This document shows positions 4,371-64,000 of a stretch of DNA of 64,000 bases, piece after piece. Both the position numbers and the translations under genes were made by a program. The DNA is from a virus. Lineage: Duplodnaviria > Caudoviricetes. Location: the IMG/VR virus record IMGVR_UViG_3300014039_000027, positions 16,713-80,712 of that record. The stretch is one strand, 5' to 3'. Position 1 is the first letter of the stretch; each line of letters begins with the position of its first letter. Under the pieces are notes generated by a model that searched no databases, had not been told where the DNA came from, and was given only the letters and a program-made list of their open reading frames with translations.

Positions 4371-4924
4371 TTGCCGGTTTTCTGCGCCTGCTCCGCCAGC
4401 TCCGTCAGCTCCTTCATGCTCTCCGGCGTCATGGCGGCAGCGGCGCTCATGGCCATCCGCGCCACCACATCGTTCATCACCGCCAGATTGGCGTTGATCT
4501 CCGTGTTCAGCATCTTCTCCAGGTCCCGATAGTCCGCCAGCAGGTCATACGCCTTGTCCCGCAGCGCGTCGCTCTGCTTCTTCATCCGGTCGATCTGATT
4601 GACCAGCTGCACCCCGCCCACCAGGTCGTAGTCGTCGGCGCTCATCAGCCATTTGTCCTCCTCGCAGCCGTCGAAGTCCAGCCGCAGGTACGCCCGCGAT
4701 AGTATGCCCATCAGGTAACGGCGCTTCCGTTGCCCGTTCTCCCTATACATGGGCGGCACGTCGCCCCGGAATTTCTCCCCGGTGTTCACCACCACCCGGT
4801 CGATGCACCTCTCCGCGCAGTGGCTCACAATGGCCGCCTTCTCCATTAGCGGCACATAGGCGTTGGCCTTGGCGAATACCTCTTTCATGGTGATGGGCTT
4901 GCGCTCCTTGATGCTGTTTTCCAT
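4367..4924 (-). CDS. Hypothetical phage structural-module protein
   Basis: 185-aa ORF with AGGAGAG RBS. Confidence 0.65.
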   Translation of the reverse strand: MENSIKERKPITMKEVFAKANAYVPLMEKAAIVSHCAERCIDRVVVNTGEKFRGDVPPMYRENGQRKRRYLMGILSRAYLRLDFDGCEEDKWLMSADDYDLVGGVQLVNQIDRMKKQSDALRDKAYDLLADYRDLEKMLNTEINANLAVMNDVVARMAMSAAAAMTPESMKELTELAEQAQKTGK

Positions 4925-4969
4925 CTCTCCTGCTCCTTTCAGATTCCTAATGGAAATTCCCTCGCGTGT

Positions 4970-5149
4970 TTACTTTCTGTCCTTACACCGCAGTGAGCAG
5001 TTCCGCCACTGCGCCGCGTTTTCGTACCGTCCGCTGTCCGGGCAGTGGTACTGGTAGCAGCAGAAGTCGTGTGTCCCCGTCTGCTTCCCGCACCGTATGA
5101 TGATCTCCCCCACCTTCCGGTAGGCGTGCTCGCATATCGGCTTTGCCAT
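4970..5149 (-). CDS. Small Cys-rich hypothetical protein
   Basis: MAKPICEHAY..., 59 aa, GGAGGG RBS, 7 Cys. Confidence 0.6.
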   Translation of the reverse strand: MAKPICEHAYRKVGEIIIRCGKQTGTHDFCCYQYHCPDSGRYENAAQWRNCSLRCKDRK

Positions 5150-5154
5150 CGTCC

Positions 5155-6474
5155 TTACCACCCCTCCAGTGTGATGTCTGTGCTTACGCTCTTTCCCTTG
5201 CACCGGGCCGTCACCGTCAGGGGCTTCACACTGCCGCCCCAGCAGTACACGGCAGCGGTGTTCCCGTCTGCCTCTGCGGTGTAGCTGTCCTCCGCCGCCC
5301 CGGTGAAGGTCCATTCTATTGCGTCGCCGGTCTCCGCGCCGTTCTCGGTGTATATGGCCGTCAGCGTGGTCTTACCGTAGGCTTCCAGCCTCTCCACCGG
5401 GTCCGTCTGCCAGTGTACGCCGCTTACGCTCTCCGCCACCGTCACCGCATAGGTGCCATAGTGTTCCTCGTTCTGTACCAGCACCGCCGTTATGGTGCAG
5501 TCTCCCTCGCCCACCGCCGTCACGCTGCCCGTGGGGTCCACCCGGCATACGCTCTCATCGCTGCTGTACCACAGGTAGCGGGTGGGGTGCTCCGCGTCGC
5601 CGTCCGCCGCCTCTCCGTTCCGCAGGGACGCGGCGGTGAATTTTGCTTTTTCGCCCACGCTCATGGCCGCCCTGCCGCCCACGTTCACCTCCCAGGTGAA
5701 GGGGTAGGCGTTGGCCACCCGGCGCGTCAGGTCATCTTTCTCCTTGTCCGGCTCCGTCATCCGCGCCGTGAACCGCAGCAGCCGGCAGCTCTCGTCGTCC
5801 CCGGTGAACTCCTGCGCCACGTCGCTGTACCCGGTGATCTGATACGCCATCCGCCCCAGTATCAACCGGCTGTTCACGTCCAGGTCCTCCGTTTCACAGT
5901 TGCGCTGTATGATAATGTTGAAGTACCCCTGCATAATGAGCATGGTCTCCTGGAAGTCGTTGGCGCTGGCGTTCAGCTTCACGTTCTCCACCACCATCGG
6001 CTCCTTCAGCACGTTGCCGTACCAGTCCAGGTGGTTCCATGTGGCGTTGCACCGCCTTACGATGCCGCCGCCCACGGCGGAGGATATGTTGGCCGGGTTC
6101 GTCACCAGCCAGGTGGAGCCCATTGTCTCCATCTTTGCCCCTTCGGGCACATATTCGATGCGCTTGTCTACAAACAGGAACTCCTTGTAGTTGTCTATGG
6201 GCCGGTCTATGGCGTTGCCCTTCTTCCGCGCGTCGGCAAAGCGTATCAGCTGCTCGCTCCACTCGTAGAAGTTGTTGGGGTCGCTGTCCAGCCCCTGCAC
6301 CCGGCAGGCGGTGTAGTCGCTGGCGTACTTGCCGTATGCCTGCACGAACCGCGCCGTGGGGTCGCCGAAGTAGGGGTTCCGCCTGTCGTTGTACTGTGCG
6401 GGTCGGTTGGTGGGCGACTGGGGTCTCTCCGCCATCGCGGCGATATTGCTCAGATTTTTCCGTATGTCCGCCAT
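5155..6474 (-). CDS. Probable head-closure/connector protein with Ig-like (Big_2) domain
   Basis: 439 aa; WYSSDESVCRVDPTGSVTAVGEGDCTITA is a Big_2 motif. Confidence 0.65.
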   Translation of the reverse strand: MADIRKNLSNIAAMAERPQSPTNRPAQYNDRRNPYFGDPTARFVQAYGKYASDYTACRVQGLDSDPNNFYEWSEQLIRFADARKKGNAIDRPIDNYKEFLFVDKRIEYVPEGAKMETMGSTWLVTNPANISSAVGGGIVRRCNATWNHLDWYGNVLKEPMVVENVKLNASANDFQETMLIMQGYFNIIIQRNCETEDLDVNSRLILGRMAYQITGYSDVAQEFTGDDESCRLLRFTARMTEPDKEKDDLTRRVANAYPFTWEVNVGGRAAMSVGEKAKFTAASLRNGEAADGDAEHPTRYLWYSSDESVCRVDPTGSVTAVGEGDCTITAVLVQNEEHYGTYAVTVAESVSGVHWQTDPVERLEAYGKTTLTAIYTENGAETGDAIEWTFTGAAEDSYTAEADGNTAAVYCWGGSVKPLTVTARCKGKSVSTDITLEGW

Positions 6475-6494: not shown

Positions 6495-7217
6495 TCACAG
6501 GAACTGGTATCGTCCATACCCGCCGCGCCCTCTCTGCACCGTGTTCAGGAACGTACAGTCCTGTTCGTACTTGTGCAGCTCGTCTGTCAGCCTTGCCCGG
6601 TTCTTCTCGTGCTTCGCCGCGCCCTCTCTCATGTAGGTGCCCTCGTTCACCGTGTCAAAGCTCGCGTCCTTTATCTTCATTTGGTCGTTCAGCCAGTTGC
6701 GGAAGAATCGCTCGTCCCACACGTTCGCCACGCACAGTCCCAATATCCGCTTCTGCTCCAGCGTCAGCTCGTGACCAAATTCACCGTCTGTGTAAAAGTC
6801 CAGCGTGTAGTTTATCCCCGCCATGTCCTGCATGGGGAACGTCACCACGCCCGTTTCGGCGTTGTAGCTCGCCCCGGTGTACGGCACCGCCGTCATGCCG
6901 CCCGTCACATCCTGCTCCACAATGGCGCAGGAGAATAGCTCGTAGCCCACCATCCCGGTGTCCACTTCCGTTTCGCCCATCAGGCTGCTTTCGTCACTGG
7001 TCCAGTAGAAGTCGCCGTACTGCGGCTCCACCAGTCCCTCCTTCAGGTACGCCCGCATCTGCACCGGCAGGGAGAATAGGGGGATGGCATTGGCCACATA
7101 CAGGCTCATCCGCCGCAGAAACGCCGCCGGGTCGTTGGCAGCCTCCTCCTGCAGCCGTACATCGTCTATGTCCACCATCGCGTGGTTCGTCACGATCTCG
7201 CTCCACTTCGTCCCCAT
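6495..7217 (-). CDS. Probable head-tail adaptor protein
   Basis: 240-aa ORF with RBS, directly upstream of the head-closure-like gene. Confidence 0.5.
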   Translation of the reverse strand: MGTKWSEIVTNHAMVDIDDVRLQEEAANDPAAFLRRMSLYVANAIPLFSLPVQMRAYLKEGLVEPQYGDFYWTSDESSLMGETEVDTGMVGYELFSCAIVEQDVTGGMTAVPYTGASYNAETGVVTFPMQDMAGINYTLDFYTDGEFGHELTLEQKRILGLCVANVWDERFFRNWLNDQMKIKDASFDTVNEGTYMREGAAKHEKNRARLTDELHKYEQDCTFLNTVQRGRGGYGRYQFL

Positions 7218-7229
7218 GTTCTCCCCTCC

Positions 7230-7757
7230 TTATGCCGGAATATAAATGGTTATCATCTCTCCCGCCGTGCCGTCTGTCAGCGCCACGCCGTCCGCGCCGG
7301 TCGAGTCTCCGCCCAGCCCCTCCACCAGCGGCGCGTTGCTGGGGTAGGTGTTTGCTCCGGGGTACAGGGTCGTGCTGGGCATCAGCCCGGTCTTTTCCGC
7401 CTGTGGGTACAGCGTTGCGGAGGGGTACAGTGTCTCTGAAGGGAATAGCCCCTTCGTTATCCGTACAAAGTCCCCCGCCTGTACCGCGGAGCCGGGGGCG
7501 ACGCGGTAGGCCGCCTCCCAGTCTCCGTTGCCGTACAGGTACAGGGCATAGCCCTCTCCGCTTGCCAGCGGAAGGCGTATCTGCCCCATATCGGGGTAGG
7601 TGGAGTTGTTTATCTTCACTCCCGCCTTCCACTTTTCCAGCGCTCCGGGCGCACCGTTGATCTGCATGAACCGTGCCGTGCCTCCTGCGGCCAGCGGCAC
7701 CTGCACGACGGAGATGCCCGTATAGGTCACGCCGTTGATCTTTACATCTCTCGCCAT
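7230..7757 (-). CDS. Virion fibre/decoration-type protein with LYP repeats
   Basis: LFPSETLYPSATLYP...TLYPGANTYP repeats; 175 aa. Confidence 0.55.
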   Translation of the reverse strand: MARDVKINGVTYTGISVVQVPLAAGGTARFMQINGAPGALEKWKAGVKINNSTYPDMGQIRLPLASGEGYALYLYGNGDWEAAYRVAPGSAVQAGDFVRITKGLFPSETLYPSATLYPQAEKTGLMPSTTLYPGANTYPSNAPLVEGLGGDSTGADGVALTDGTAGEMITIYIPA

Positions 7758-7775
7758 GCTTTCCGTTCCTCTCCG

Positions 7776-7961
7776 TCAGGCTATCGTCAGTACGCTGCCC
7801 GCCGCGGTGATCTGCGGCGTGGTCAGCGTCCCCACGATGGGTGCCCCACTCTTGTCGTGGGCGGTGGCGCCTTTCGCCAGCGTGTTGGCCGTCACGCTGT
7901 CCCCTGACAGGTCCAGCTTTACCGCGCCGTCCACCACGACCTTGTTCACGTTTTTTGCCAT
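7776..7961 (-). CDS. Small fibre-type protein, paralogue of the N-terminus of the next gene
   Basis: NKVVVDGAVKLDLSGDSV..KGATAHDKSGAPIVGT. Confidence 0.65.
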   Translation of the reverse strand: MAKNVNKVVVDGAVKLDLSGDSVTANTLAKGATAHDKSGAPIVGTLTTPQITAAGSVLTIA

Positions 7962-14467: not shown

Positions 14468-14559
14468 TTACCGCCTTTCGTAATCAGCCTTCTTTTCGAA
14501 ACAAGGGGAAGGCGGCAAGGCTAACCGCTTTTCGGGAGCTACCCTATCCCCATGTTTTT

Positions 14560-25507: not shown

Positions 25508-27196
25508 TCATTCCTCCCCAAACCATTTCTTCGTCACCACGATGGGAAACTGCTCGATCTCGCTTGCCCACCGCGCCATGCCTCTGCCGTGTATTCTCTC
25601 GAAAGCTAAGGGGAAACCCCCTATGCCATCAAACAAGCTCCCCAGCGTCGCGCCCTCCGGCAGATACCGCGCCATACGCCGCAGCATCCACTCCCAGAAA
25701 GGCAGGGCGATGGAGTTCCCCAGCGCCTTGTACTTGGGGCTGTCCGCGTCCTTGTGCTTCTTGCCCTTCTCGTCCACCCAGTCGCCGATGTCCACCCAAC
25801 CGTAAGTGCTCACAATTTGCTGAACCCTGCTTTTGCAAATTCCGTATTTTTCGGAAAGCTCTTTCGTCGTCATTTCACCGCTTCTGTACAGTTCAACAAC
25901 TTCCTTTCTCTTTGAAACTGGCAATTTTGTGGATGGGTTGTCATCGCCAACCAAGTATCGCCCATCACGGTGCGCTTTGTGTGAGTTTTCCTCCGGCGTT
26001 AATAGCTGTAAATTGCTAATCCGATTGTCCGCTTTGTCGTTGTTTATATGGTCAATAACATAGCCTTCGGGGATAATTCCATTCTTTGCAATCCACACCA
26101 CGCGGTGTACCCGGCATTGCAATTTTGTGTCACCATTCCTAATGCTTACAACTCTGTACCCGTTGACGTTAGTCCCCGCAAGAAGCCTCGGTTCAGAAAG
26201 CCTTTTACCTCCCGGTCCTTTCGTTGTATATATCTTCCCATTCTCGCAATCAACCACAATTTGCCCGGAGGCAATATTGGCTGCAATATATTCGTCTTTC
26301 GTCATTTCTTCTATGTTCATCTCCATAAACTCCGGATACCCCTGCAGCCGGGTACATTCCAGCGGCGTCAACCGGCGCACCACCATGTTCTGCACCGGGT
26401 ATGTCTCCGCATCCTCCCGGTACGCGCAGTTGGCTTTTGCCCGCAATGTTTTCGACACATCCGGATTCTCTGCGCCGAAAACAAGCATATCATTATAGGC
26501 ATCCTGACCGTTGTAGCTTCCCGCATGAGCGCCGGGAGATAGCGTTCCCGCAACGTCCTGATATGTAAGCGGTATCTGATTGCCGCCCGTGCCCATTCGT
26601 GCCTGTAATGCCGGTGCCTGCTCTCCGCAGTCGCGTATCACATCGCAGGCGTGGGACATATCCAGCACCGCGCAGGGTACATGGGCGTTCGCATTCAGCG
26701 TATGGCACGGCTTGCCAAACTCCGGCTGGCTTCCGTTTTCCTTGCTGGTAATCTGCGTAGTGTCAAAGGCCATCACCGCTGGGGTTTGGTTCGTCCCGCT
26801 GGGTGTAGCCGCCAGTGTGGGCGAAACTTCTTCGCTGTACCCGATACCCCCCGCCTGTGCGCCCTGTCCCGCTTTGAACCCAGCACATAGCACGGCTTCA
26901 CGGTTCAGCCCGCTGTTTTCGCGGGAGCTCAGCGTGGGCGAGATGCCGTCCCCATCGTACACACGCTGGCTCTGCGCGTCCCAAGGCGTCATGCACATCA
27001 CCCCGTGTCGGTCGCCTGCGGTCAGCGTTGGGGAGGGATCGCCCTCTTTACCCACGCCCAGCCCATTGCCGCTTCCATCGTGATTGCGGTTCTCTCCGCC
27101 ACCCTGCCACCGCGTGGCTTTGTCGTTGATGGGAATTGCCGTAAATATCGTCTGATCGTTTCCCGTGCCCAGCGTCCCGCTTCTCTCCGTCTGCAC
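25508..27196 (-). CDS. DNA cytosine-5 methyltransferase, C-terminal part (TRD array, motifs IX and X, HNH insert, permuted motif I-like FDGIGGF)
   Basis: RRLTPLECTRLQGYP, KYKALGNSIA, GSLFDGIGGF, WASEIE. Confidence 0.8.
   Translation of the reverse strand: MQTERSGTLGTGNDQTIFTAIPINDKATRWQGGGENRNHDGSGNGLGVGKEGDPSPTLTAGDRHGVMCMTPWDAQSQRVYDGDGISPTLSSRENSGLNREAVLCAGFKAGQGAQAGGIGYSEEVSPTLAATPSGTNQTPAVMAFDTTQITSKENGSQPEFGKPCHTLNANAHVPCAVLDMSHACDVIRDCGEQAPALQARMGTGGNQIPLTYQDVAGTLSPGAHAGSYNGQDAYNDMLVFGAENPDVSKTLRAKANCAYREDAETYPVQNMVVRRLTPLECTRLQGYPEFMEMNIEEMTKDEYIAANIASGQIVVDCENGKIYTTKGPGGKRLSEPRLLAGTNVNGYRVVSIRNGDTKLQCRVHRVVWIAKNGIIPEGYVIDHINNDKADNRISNLQLLTPEENSHKAHRDGRYLVGDDNPSTKLPVSKRKEVVELYRSGEMTTKELSEKYGICKSRVQQIVSTYGWVDIGDWVDEKGKKHKDADSPKYKALGNSIALPFWEWMLRRMARYLPEGATLGSLFDGIGGFPLAFERIHGRGMARWASEIEQFPIVVTKKWFGEE
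25802..26329 (-). mobile_element. In-frame HNH endonuclease plus HTH insertion within the methyltransferase
   Basis: RVHRVVW...IDHINNDKADNRISNLQLLT...NSHK; AT-rich; splits QGYPE|GWVDIGDW. Confidence 0.75.
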
Positions 27197-61507: not shown

Positions 61508-61583
61508 GGTGTCGTAGCTCAGCTGGCAGAGCAGCCGCCTTGTAAGCGGCAGGTCGTGGGTCCGATCCCCACCGATACCTCCA
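61508..61583 (+). tRNA. tRNA-Thr(UGU), atypical T loop
   Basis: GCCGC-CT TGT AA-GCGGC; acceptor GGTGTCG/CGATACC, U73, CCA; T loop TCCGATC. Confidence 0.85.
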
Positions 61584-61767: not shown

Positions 61768-61840
61768 GCAGACGTAGCTCAGCCGGTAGAGCACCGCGCC
61801 AGGAGGTATGTCGTTGGTTCGAGTCCAACCGTCTGCACCA
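61768..61840 (+). tRNA. tRNA-like RNA with collapsed anticodon arm (pseudo-tRNA)
   Basis: Perfect acceptor GCAGACG/CGTCTGC, D and T arms and CCA, but no canonical 5-bp/7-nt anticodon arm. Confidence 0.7.
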
Positions 61841-61847
61841 ATAGGCG

Positions 61848-62150
61848 TGACCTCTTGCCTCGCAGCCGCACGGAGCGTAAGCCTGCGAAAGTGGTCTTTC
61901 CTGTGCGCTGTACGAAAGCGGCAGGACGAAGTAATTTATTTATTGGCTGGCACCGGCCTTGTAAAGATGAACGGATGCGACCGACGTACCGGCGCAGGGC
62001 TGAAAAGTTCCGTGGTTGGTTCGGGCGCCGGCGTGTGCGGCGAAAATCCGAGGCGAAAATAGCAGATATGGACGCGGCGTGGTAGCGGCTGCCTTCGGGC
62101 AAGGCCGCTGTGTAGGTCAGTAGCTACCCGCGCCGGTGCCCCGCCAACTG
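61848..62150 (+). ncRNA. Candidate multi-branched structured RNA
   Basis: Long-range GGCACCGGC/GCCGGTGCC helix, nested stems, GNRA- and UUCG-type loops. Confidence 0.55.
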
Positions 62151-62166
62151 TGTCCCAACAAAACTC

Positions 62167-62240
62167 GCAGCGTTTGTGTAATGGTAGCACATCGGTCCTC
62201 CAAACCGATAGTGGCGGTTCGAATCCGCTACGCTGCTCCA
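62167..62240 (+). tRNA. tRNA-Gly(UCC) with C33
   Basis: TCGGT-CC TCC AA-ACCGA; acceptor GCAGCGT/ACGCTGC, U73, CCA. Confidence 0.85.
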
Positions 62241-62310: not shown

Positions 62311-62455
62311 GCAGGATCGCCGTCGGGGCGCTTGCACGGCACACACAGAGATCTCCTTTCTGCTGCTGTTTGGACACATCAACACCTCCATTGTTCATGT
62401 CATCTTTTCCGTGTGCCGGCAAGCCATGCGGGTTCGACTCCCGCCTCCTGCTCCA
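62311..62455 (+). ncRNA. 145-nt tRNA-like RNA with extended anticodon helix and 66-nt loop
   Basis: Acceptor GCAGGA/TCCTGC-U-CCA, mini D arm CGCC/GGCG, T arm GCGGG-TTCGACT-CCCGC, helix CTTGC-A-CGGCACAC/GTGTGCCG-GCAAG. Confidence 0.7.
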
Positions 62456-62629
62456 CCGGGCGCGACAGGCGCCCGCGGTCCAGATAGGACCTCCTTTATA
62501 GATGCCGCGGCTGTAAGAAGCGGCACCGGGTTTTGTTCATTTTCCCCGGCTCCTGTTGGAATACAGGCAGGCCAAGCGATTTCTCCTTCCGGGCGGCGCG
62601 GTCTGGGCAGCCGCGCCGTCCAACCCCCT

Positions 62630-62705
62630 GGGGGATTAGCTCAATCGGCAGAGCAGGCGGCTCATAACCGCCCGGTTCCGGGTTCAAGTCCCCGATCCCC
62701 CACCA
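62630..62705 (+). tRNA. tRNA(CAU), probably Ile2 (lysidine type); elongator Met not excluded
   Basis: GGCGG-CT CAT AA-CCGCC; acceptor GGGGGAT/ATCCCCC, A73, CCA. Confidence 0.85.
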
Positions 62706-62758: not shown

Positions 62759-63034
62759 ATGACCAAGAGCGAGTTCATCACCACTCTGGCAGCAGCGACC
62801 GACATGAAGAAGTCCGACGTCGAGCGCGTGATCGCCGCCGCTACCAACACCCTCACCGGCGTCATGCGTTCCGGTGACAGCGTGAATATCTCCGGCTTCG
62901 GCATCTTCACCAGCAAGGTCCGCGACGCCCACCCCGGCAAGAACCCCGCCACCGGCGAGACCATCACCATCCCCGCCAAGCGCGTGGCCATCTTCAAGCC
63001 CGCCAAGCAGCTCAAGGACGCCGTCAACAGCTGA
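62759..63034 (+). CDS. hup: HU-family DNA-binding protein
   Basis: MTKSEFI...GDSVNISGFGIF...GKNPATGETITIPAKRVAIFKPAKQLKDAVN. Confidence 0.95.
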   Translation: MTKSEFITTLAAATDMKKSDVERVIAAATNTLTGVMRSGDSVNISGFGIFTSKVRDAHPGKNPATGETITIPAKRVAIFKPAKQLKDAVNS

Positions 63035-63066: not shown

Positions 63067-63108
63067 ACAGAACCAGCCGGACGGCACACCGCCCTCCGGC
63101 TTGTTTTG
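63067..63108 (+). terminator. Probable terminator after hup
   Basis: AGCCGGA-CGGCACACCGCCC-TCCGGCT followed by TGTTTT. Confidence 0.55.
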
Positions 63109-63118
63109 TAAGCCATAT

Positions 63119-63141
63119 TTCCGTTGCGTTTTGAATATCAC
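63119..63141. repeat. Third copy of the 23-nt motif found at 4348-4370
   Basis: TTCCGTTGCGTTTTGAATATCAC, exact match. Confidence 0.85.
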
Positions 63142-63196
63142 AACGCAGCTTCACAACAAAACTTGCGAAACCTCTTACGAAAAGGAGAAACACAAC

Positions 63197-64000
63197 ATGA
63201 TCTACTTCGACAATGCCGCCACCACGCCGGTCCTGGACTGCGCGTGGGAAGCTATGCAGGAAGCCCCATTTGCCAACCCCTCCAGCAGCCACGCGGAGGG
63301 CCGTGTAGCGAAAGCCGCCCTTGAGAACGCCCGCAGCACCATTGCGTCCTGTCTGAACTGCCGCCCCAGCGAGGTCTACTTCACCAGCGGCGCCACCGAA
63401 GCGTGTAATTGGATGGTTAGGTTCCTTCGTCTTTCCTCCGACGGCATTATTTACAGCGACACCGTTCATCACGCCGTCAGCGAGGCTATCCACGCCTATT
63501 CATCCCCCAACGCGCCCCGCGGCAAGCCCTCCGCCATCCTCTCCCTTGTCAACAATGAAACCGGGCAGATAAGCGATGTGTACGCTTTCCGCCGTCAGAA
63601 CCGCCTCCACCGCATCGGCATAGACGCCACCGCCGCCGTTGGCCACATCCTCGTGAACTTCCGCGCTCTGGGCGCGGACTACATGGCCTTTGGCGGCCAC
63701 AAATTCGGCGCTCCCAAGGGAATCGGCGCACTGATCGTCCGGGAGGGCTGCCCCATCTCCCCCATGATCTTCGGCGGCGCACAGGAGCGTGGTATGCGCG
63801 GCGGCACGGTCTCCGTTCCTCTGGCCGCAGCTATGGCCGCTGCCCTTGCGTGGCACACGAAAAACATGGCCGTCAACGCCATACAGATTCACAAGGTCCG
63901 CACCCAGCTCATTTTCGACCTGGCCCAGCTGGGCGTGGACCACATTGTCAACCTCAACGACGGCCACCGCCAGTTTGCCGACCACATCCTCTCCCTCCGC
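63197..64000 (+). CDS. iscS: Cysteine desulfurase (IscS/NifS family), divergent, truncated by the window end
   Basis: MIYFDNAATT, ANPSS.H..G, FTSGATEA.N, VNNETG, DA.AAVG, GHKFGAPKGIGAL, RGGT; AAAGGAG RBS. Confidence 0.9.
   Translation, partial: MIYFDNAATTPVLDCAWEAMQEAPFANPSSSHAEGRVAKAALENARSTIASCLNCRPSEVYFTSGATEACNWMVRFLRLSSDGIIYSDTVHHAVSEAIHAYSSPNAPRGKPSAILSLVNNETGQISDVYAFRRQNRLHRIGIDATAAVGHILVNFRALGADYMAFGGHKFGAPKGIGALIVREGCPISPMIFGGAQERGMRGGTVSVPLAAAMAAALAWHTKNMAVNAIQIHKVRTQLIFDLAQLGVDHIVNLNDGHRQFADHILSLR

Follow-up and report, generated by a model that had tools for sequence, protein, structure and literature searches.

A conserved, non-decoding RNA gene on a tRNA-Gly scaffold, carrying anti-Shine–Dalgarno-like motifs, in the tRNA array of human-gut phages

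Results

A tRNA-scaffolded element between two tRNA genes

The 64,000-nucleotide (nt) stretch of phage DNA analysed here, referred to as the window, comes from an 80.7-kb IMG/VR virus record, and because the ends of that record overlap by ~99 bp the genome is taken to be circular or complete. The window carries a non-coding tRNA array on the + strand, which opens with tRNA-Thr(UGU) at position 61508 and continues with an odd tRNA-like unit (61768–61838), tRNA-Gly(UCC) (62167–62240), a tRNA-scaffolded element of 145 nt (62311–62455) and tRNA-Met(CAU) at 62630. A gene for the protein HU (62759–63034) lies directly 3' of the array. The subject of this study is the element that stands between the glycine and methionine tRNAs. 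We hold with high confidence that it is a conserved, non-decoding RNA gene derived from tRNA-Gly. ARAGORN called four tRNAs in the window and the element was not among them, while an Rfam scan (gathering score and E <= 10) detected no tRNA (RF00005), tmRNA or other family over 62311–62455.

The element is predicted to fold with a minimum free energy (MFE) of -55.8 kcal/mol (z = -4.0), and none of 200 shuffled sequences was equally stable. From 5' to 3', the MFE structure consists of an acceptor stem, one linker nucleotide, a mini D arm, a long helix, a 3-nt variable region (CAU), a T arm, U73 and CCA. This agrees with the cloverleaf of acceptor stem, mini D arm, T arm and U73-CCA that had been described in a first-pass annotation of the sequence. 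The 5' strand of the acceptor stem, GCAGGAU (62311–62317, +), pairs through 62311–62316 with 62446–62451; position 7-66 is a U.C mismatch in the window, leaving 6/7 pairs, whereas most relatives carry G7 and a 7/7 stem. The 3' strand, CUCCUGC, is followed by the discriminator U73 and a genome-encoded CCA (62445–62455, +, with U73 and CCA at 62452–62455). The mini D arm, GCC/GUCGG/GGC (62319–62329, +), has a 3-bp stem and a 5-nt loop ending in GG, reminiscent of G18/G19, and the T arm, GCGGG/UUCGACU/CCCGC (62428–62444, +), is canonical.

The long helix begins immediately after the D stem and occupies the position of the anticodon stem. Its 5' strand, GCUUGC-A-CGGCACAC (62330–62344, +), pairs in the MFE fold with GUGUGCCG-GCAAGC (62411–62424, +), giving 14 bp (6+8) interrupted by a single bulged A (A62336), rather than the 13-bp helix reported at first pass. 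Thus, the element has the acceptor stem, the T arm with a T-psi-C-type loop (UUCGACU), the discriminator and the CCA of a tRNA, but a stalk and an insert are found where a tRNA has a 5-bp anticodon stem and a 7-nt anticodon loop.

The insert (62345–62410, +) is pyrimidine-rich (C 30%, U 36%, G 14%) and contains no stop codons. It had previously been described as a 66-nt pyrimidine-rich loop; the composition holds, but the loop is not predicted to be open, as two hairpins form within it and present the motifs in their loops. Hairpin 1 (62346–62362, +) has a 6-bp stem and the loop UCUCC (62352–62356), and carries CUCCUUUCU. Hairpin 2 (62377–62399, +) has a stem of eight positions, with one C.C mismatch, and a 7-nt loop, CCUCCAU (62385–62391), and carries CACCUCC. 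The motif positions given earlier, CUCCUUUC from 62353 and CACCUCC from 62383, were correct, whereas CAU, of which two copies had been put forward as anti-start motifs, occurs four times and is uninformative.

Since the insert sits in the anticodon arm, the usual site of tRNA introns, it could in principle be spliced out to leave a normal tRNA. No group I or group II intron matched in the Rfam scan, and with 66 nt the insert is below group I size, as had been noted at first pass; the P3–P9 core of a group I intron takes at least ~200 nt. The flanks of the insert are unable to make a 7-nt loop with U33, and the stalk is conserved as a helix. In none of the three subfamilies of the element, A, B and C, which are described below, can a 7-nt anticodon loop be formed at the right place, and the three have no candidate anticodon in common. 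Because no anticodon loop can form, the element does not decode, and we consider an intron-containing tRNA extremely improbable.

The element belongs to a family with three subfamilies

Family members were gathered by scanning viral and metagenome contigs for exact patterns and by look-ups via the neighbouring HU protein, and the element was found in >60 gut-phage contigs from these two sources. The homologues with a conserved scaffold and a variable loop that had been anticipated at first pass therefore exist: they form three subfamilies in which the inserts are unalignable and the motifs are kept. Subfamily A (145–148 nt) comprises about 20–30 haplotypes, nearly all of which carry GCAGGAG and a full 7-bp acceptor stem, as is also the case in near-identical phages. 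The GCAGGAU allele seen in the window recurs in five independent assemblies and is therefore a real polymorphism. Subfamily B (131 nt; loci L055 and L064) lies upstream of an HU gene 76% identical to that of the window, and subfamily C (195 nt; L063 and L067) was located via the common T arm and acceptor stem.

One scaffold fold is common to all three subfamilies. Invariant throughout are the T arm and the D stem GCC/GGC; in the D loop only the terminal GG is fixed, and the other positions vary. No covariation was detected inside subfamily A, whose sequences are too alike, and the evidence for compensatory change comes from comparison between subfamilies, in which pairs were read from the sequences and folds. 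A MAFFT alignment of A, B and C misplaces the stalk. Between A and B/C, two acceptor pairs differ on both strands (3-70, A-U to G-C; 5-68, G-C to A-U). Even more strikingly changed are the five proximal stalk pairs, which are wholly different in A, B and C and yet pair in each (GCUUG/CAAGC, AAACG/CGUUU and GUCGU/ACGAC, respectively); the stalk strands are AAACGAC/GUCGUUU in B and GUCGU/ACGAC in C.

A covariance model (R1) built from 14 sequences, all of subfamily A, recognised C with 43.9 bits (E 1e-6) and B with 42 bits (E 3e-6), whereas ordinary tRNAs scored <=31.5 bits in about 570 kb of test sequence. Scanning with the same model yielded one element per phage. Within subfamily A, 5/84 paired columns are variable compared to 24/64 unpaired columns (Fisher P = 1.8e-6), and variable columns amount to 21% in the element versus 85% in the upstream spacer.

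Outside these contigs, searches gave little. A blastn search of the element against 50,697 phage records returned only T-arm-sized matches to ordinary tRNAs, and a pattern scan of the genome collection gave a single chance match (Ottowia), with no prophage and no host. When viral contigs were scanned with a wider structural pattern for further subfamilies, 7 of 8 matches were due to chance and the eighth was the known subfamily-B locus L064.

The phage has genes for a portal protein, for a DnaB helicase and a DnaD-like helicase loader, and for a CHAP/amidase endolysin whose closest bacterial look-alikes are from Bacillota. Its relatives originate from human-gut samples, and the only one in a cultured collection is an unannotated faecal 'Bacteriophage sp.' record. 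We conclude that the element represents an RNA family, in Bacillota phages of the human gut, that matches none of those described.

The scaffold is derived from tRNA-Gly

The first-pass annotation missed that the scaffold is derived from tRNA-Gly. Ordinary phage tRNA-Gly(UCC/GCC) genes (L005, L020, L060, L061, L065 and L069) have the same T arm and 3' acceptor strand as the element (GCGGGUUCGAnUCCCGC-CUyCyGC-UCCA). Furthermore, G1-C72, C2-G71 and U73 are retained in all subfamilies; these are the acceptor-side glycine identity elements of bacteria, and the combination of U73 and G71 is unique to tRNA-Gly (PMC9976931). In most members of subfamily A the loop of hairpin 2 is CCUCCAA, which is also the anticodon loop of the phage's own tRNA-Gly(UCC). 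Judging from this identity, hairpin 2 may descend from the ancestral anticodon arm.

The tRNA-Gly(UCC) of the phage (62167–62240, +) has a peculiarity of its own. Its anticodon loop, CCUCCAA, carries C33 instead of U33, which is near-universal in tRNAs. The C33 allele was seen in 16 of the loci examined, and most relatives have the canonical CUUCCAA. The anticodon stem of this tRNA shows compensatory changes, and the gene is therefore under selection.

The 3' 28 nt of the element are identical to real tRNA-Gly genes, and a tyrosine integrase is encoded ~2.5 kb 3' of the element on the circular genome, across the genome junction and past a NifS-like gene (genome 906–1952). Both facts would suit an attachment site of the phage (attP) that includes the 3' part of a tRNA-Gly gene, or else a tRNA-Gly gene decaying into a pseudogene. 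However, changes in the 5' acceptor strand are matched by changes in the 3' strand, and purifying selection acts on the helices. In 21/21 contigs that encode the same HU protein (none >200 kb) the element is intact, with no split attL/attR, and a different site, a 300-bp gap that adjoins int and precedes the convergent endolysin gene, is where attP would usually lie. We regard a pseudogene or an attP as highly improbable.

A different possibility is that the RNA acts as a decoy and titrates a protein that reads the elbow of acceptor stem and T arm, such as SmpB, GlyRS, EF-Tu or a TacT-type acetyltransferase toxin reading U73/G71. Its architecture corresponds to the tRNA-like domain (TLD) of tmRNA followed by helix P2, and the glycine acceptor set G1-C72, C2-G71 and U73 is invariant. 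TacT reads U73 and G71 (PMC9976931), and a TLD-only molecule strongly inhibits tmRNA, perhaps via titration of SmpB, as was proposed for the tmRNA of mycobacteriophage DS6A, which consists of the TLD only (PMC4131195). On the other hand, the ancestry of the element is tRNA-Gly and not tmRNA, it has a 3-bp D stem, which tmRNA lacks, and a decoy would leave the conserved anti-SD (Shine–Dalgarno) motifs unexplained.

The tmRNA hallmarks themselves are also absent. As stated at first pass, the element lacks G3.U70, having A3-U70 instead, and there is no evident tag open reading frame (ORF), the insert being free of stop codons. The mini-tmRNA proposed there as an alternative is not supported, since to this are added the lack of a conserved tag ORF across subfamilies, of an Rfam tmRNA match at E <= 10 and of an SmpB gene in the phage. 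A short GCA...UAA frame, tried as a tmRNA-like tag, is found in B only and is not shared, the insert of A having no stops; it was rejected. We consider a top-half decoy decidedly unlikely.

Anti-SD-like motifs are kept in unalignable inserts

Although no alignment can be made between the inserts of A, B and C, all three are pyrimidine-rich (C 25–30%, U 36–40%, G 12–15%). ACCUCC is present in all three, together with UCCUUUCU in A and B or CUCCUU in C, and these anti-SD-like motifs are the sole insert features that survive subfamily divergence. ACCUCC, UCCUUUCU and CUCCUU are pieces of GAUCACCUCCUUUCU, which we take to be the 3' tail of Bacillota 16S rRNA and which may differ from the tail of the phage's host. 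The number of 6-mers matching GAUCACCUCCUUUCU exceeded that in 5000 dinucleotide shuffles (P = 0.002–0.013 per subfamily), in a test that was made post hoc and on subfamilies related by descent. The motif of hairpin 1, CUCCUUUCU, comprises 9 nt identical to the 16S 3' tail; it is invariant in subfamily A, and the stem that presents it is retained through G.U to A-U and C-G to U.G changes.

The predicted placement of the motifs differs between subfamilies. Both are in hairpin loops in A, one is in a similar hairpin in C, where AACACA-CCUCCUAU-UGUGUU resembles hairpin 2, and in B they are unstructured. Presentation of CCUCC and CUCCU in predicted hairpin loops, with motifs kept in three subfamilies, is a feature that the element has in common with C-rich anti-SD small RNAs (sRNAs).

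A third anti-SD-like tract is found outside the element, in a conserved 3' trailer (62456–62555, +) that contains several hairpins, including GGUCC-AGAUA-GGACC, followed by UCCUUUAUAG. The hairpin GGUCC..GGACC followed by UCCUUU occurs in the trailer of both A and B (hairpin plus ACCUCCUU in B; ACCUCCUUU in the spacer after the element). With 6–7 variable columns per 50, conservation of the trailer matches that of the element, and the two are possibly linked.

These copies of the 16S tail might be aimed at a protein rather than at mRNA. Era reads the AUCACCUCC tail, and Era, the RNases of 3'-end maturation, a hibernation factor or a ribosome-targeting toxin could all be titrated or misdirected by an RNA that mimics the AUCACCUCCUUUCU 3' end of 16S rRNA. 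In favor of such a mimic, the matches run past the CCUCC core into the 16S-tail flanks UUUCU and AUCA, the trailer copy after its hairpin (GGUCC..GGACCUCCUUU) recalls helix 45 and the tail, and duplex scans did not find a specific mRNA target. Conversely, a partner protein is not encoded nearby, the tail is copied piecewise and divided between two loops, and its AUCAACA portion is base-paired in hairpin 2. The reading is wholly inferential, and we consider it a long shot.

Position of the element in the array

The HU gene is directly downstream of the element-bearing tRNA array in subfamilies A, B and C. In subfamily C the element ends 40 nt ahead of the HU gene, whereas in A and B a normal tRNA-Met is located between the two. 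In the window HU is followed by a gene for a NifS/IscS-like cysteine desulfurase (Aminotran_5; 63101–64000, continuing to genome 1–530), and subfamilies A and C both have such a gene after the array and HU. It is speculation that this enzyme could provide sulfur for tRNA thiolation. The array spacers at 61839–62166 and 62456–62629 (+) are long and hairpin-rich and have no credible ORF. We claim no promoter for the array: the candidate TTGACA...TAAAAT at ~61283 has a spacer of 13 nt and was not called by the promoter scan.

This organization raises the question of whether the tRNA-like fold is simply a processing mark, in which case it would serve as a signal for RNase P and 3'-end cutting that punctuates a long transcript of non-coding RNA and HU, as in plant mitochondrial t-elements and mascRNA, and the insert would have no role in trans. 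The array does alternate tRNAs and tRNA-like units with long conserved spacers, relatives contain other non-decoding tRNA-like units, and the trailer is conserved as strongly as the element. In subfamily C, moreover, an element 40 nt before HU could set the 5' end of the HU mRNA. In A and B, however, the tRNA-Met already lies between element and HU, so that a further mark is not needed. Nor does a processing mark require a 14-bp stalk, or anti-SD motifs that are kept in otherwise unalignable inserts. We consider a processing mark with passive cargo unlikely, though not negligible.

Other features of the array and genome

The odd tRNA-like gene of the array (61768–61838, +), which is also present at L002:8047-8117 and L055:2844-2920, scored 50.6 bits in Rfam, while ARAGORN was silent. 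Nothing is unusual in its acceptor, D and T arms, but the anticodon region lacks 3 nt, is unpaired and bears CCAGGAGGUAUG, in which a perfect SD-like AGGAGGU stands beside AUG. Subfamily-B phages have AGGGGUAU at the same position, and ARAGORN calls a 4-base anticodon 'ggta' there. This SD-like tRNA mimic and the anti-SD-like element share one array.

Two more unusual RNAs were noted in relatives. At L002:8293-8405, and missing from the window, is a 113-nt tRNA-like RNA with a 10-bp extra arm that matches the tmRNA model at 30.4 bits (cut-off 47 bits). At L014:3223-3297, a tRNA-shaped RNA has its anticodon stem closed by a 4-nt loop, and ARAGORN calls a 2-base anticodon.

Elsewhere in the genome, locus L192 (genome 1–16800) contains a diversity-generating retroelement, with a reverse transcriptase at 4899–6200 (-), a 131-nt template repeat at 6245–6375 and a variable repeat at 6916–7046 that lies at the 3' end of a DUF6273 gene (6912–7889, -). 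All differences between the two repeats (14/14) are at template adenines. An Rfam int-alpA RNA motif at 14488–14554 (-) scored 50.5 bits, above the cut-off, and is distant from the integrase. Finally, the two ends of an ORF at 25511–27196 (-) match DNA methyltransferase families and its central part matches HNH endonuclease families; from this arrangement, it may represent an HNH insertion in a methylase gene.

Discussion

A possible SD-pairing RNA on a tRNA scaffold

In bacteria, a tRNA with an inserted hairpin instead of its anticodon arm is processed and stable (PMC3753655), and RsaE and RNAIII of Bacillota use unpaired UCCC or C-rich loops to bind SD sequences, which prevents initiation (PMC2790875). 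Because processing of a tRNA scaffold and SD binding by C-rich loops are both documented, we tentatively propose, by analogy and as the simplest reading, that the element could be a natural tRNA-scaffolded sRNA that pairs with SD regions. The RNA would have originated from a phage tRNA-Gly, of which acceptor stem, reduced D arm, T arm and CCA were retained, and in which the anticodon arm became a 14-bp stalk with an RNA cargo. It would be co-transcribed with the adjacent tRNAs, and the tRNA-like top half would direct exact excision by RNase P and the 3'-end machinery and confer protection from decay. The cargo would then display its two C/U-rich motifs, copies of parts of the 16S rRNA 3' tail, which would most likely pair with the purine-rich SD regions (GGAGG, AGAAAGGAG) of mRNAs. 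The HU start region has an extended ribosome-binding site, CAGAAAGGAGG, that is complementary to CUCCUUUCUG. By pairing with SD regions, the RNA would compete with the 30S subunit, and initiation of translation might be dampened or retimed.

The first-pass annotation had likewise proposed an antisense guide that occludes ribosome-binding sites. A tRNA-shaped, CCA-ended, non-decoding RNA with anti-SD-like motifs kept across subfamilies is in line with that proposal, but duplex scans pointed to no specific mRNA target. This is one of several points that weigh against SD pairing. Predicted duplexes between elements and cognate HU start regions were no better than those with non-cognate ones, and a duplex scan of the whole phage genome gave no outstanding site. 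Strong SD sequences precede the phage's own genes (21 GGAGGTG in the window), and because of this a general SD competitor would hit the phage too. The tests on the motifs were made post hoc, on subfamilies that are not independent, and the CCUCCAA loop could in part be left over from the anticodon loop of the ancestral tRNA-Gly(UCC). Lastly, the full glycine acceptor identity and the elbow-forming pair of D and T arms exceed what a stabilising handle needs, which may point to a protein or the ribosome as a partner.

Phage tRNA clusters are usually seen as helpers in codon usage or as a counter-defence against anticodon nucleases. The present results show that they also house conserved RNA genes that are missed by standard tRNA and Rfam annotation. 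If SD-site competition is what the element does, it would be a new, RNA-only viral means of tuning host and viral translation, and would offer a natural, compact scaffold for expression of regulatory RNAs in gut Bacillota. It also provides a candidate, testable explanation for orphan stable RNAs of phage tRNA clusters, such as T4 RNA C. In the broadest and more doubtful version of this idea, the element might represent a wide, undescribed class of phage RNAs. The tRNA top half would be a natural scaffold for expression and stability, perhaps also a handle for ribosome or synthetase, and a cargo modelled on the 16S anti-SD tail would compete for mRNA start sites and globally reprogram initiation.

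Comparison with known systems

Several known RNAs share part of this design. T4 RNA C (species 1 RNA, rnaC) is, like the element, a stable RNA of similar length (139 nt), located at the end of the T4 tRNA cluster, and it has a T-arm-like hairpin, GGGUUCGAAUCCC, near its 3' end. Unlike the element, it folds without a 7-bp acceptor stem or CCA, and its sequence contains no CCUCC motif. On the T4 tRNA region, model R1 matched only the T4 tRNA-Leu and not rnaC. T4 rnaC is thus an analogue in position and size, with no detectable homology.

A Y-RNA-like mimic had been another suggestion made at first pass. In YrlA, the ends of the RNA form a Ro-binding stem and the tRNA-like part is internal; the element, which ends in an acceptor stem and CCA, has the reverse topology. 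Bacterial Y RNAs resemble the element in being non-coding RNAs with a tRNA-like module, and some are phage-encoded (PMC4201824). The phage genome has no Ro gene, as no Ro/TROVE match was found in it, and together with the reversed topology this leads us to reject the suggestion.

Closer in shape is the TLD of tmRNA, including the TLD-only tmRNA of mycobacteriophage DS6A (PMC4131195), which also combines acceptor stem and T arm with a D region of reduced size, and in which a long helix likewise stands where a tRNA has its anticodon arm. The DS6A molecule is, in addition, phage-encoded and has no anticodon. The element differs from tmRNA (RF00023) in that position 3-70 is A3-U70 in A and G3-C70 in B and C rather than G3.U70, and in having no conserved tag frame, no pseudoknots and no Rfam match.

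With respect to the cargo, the closest counterparts are RsaE/RoxS and RNAIII (PMC2790875), in which unpaired, C-rich anti-SD motifs are likewise often placed in hairpin loops and present in several copies per RNA. These RNAs have intrinsic terminators, no tRNA shape and the motif UCCC, in contrast to CCUCC or UCCUUUCU in the element. Their binding and toeprint inhibition are experimental, whereas pairing by the element is a prediction from calculated duplexes.

With respect to the scaffold, the closest counterpart is the engineered 'tRNA scaffold' of Ponchon and Dardel (PMC3753655). There too, the acceptor, T and D arms are kept and the anticodon stem-loop is the site of hairpin insertion, and the scaffold gives precise processing and nuclease protection. 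The engineered scaffold was made in the laboratory from human tRNA-Lys3. The element, in contrast, occurs naturally as a phage gene, descends from tRNA-Gly, has its D arm reduced to 3 bp and carries a cargo that is conserved. A tRNA handle joined to a functional cargo is a design that RNA engineers have independently invented.

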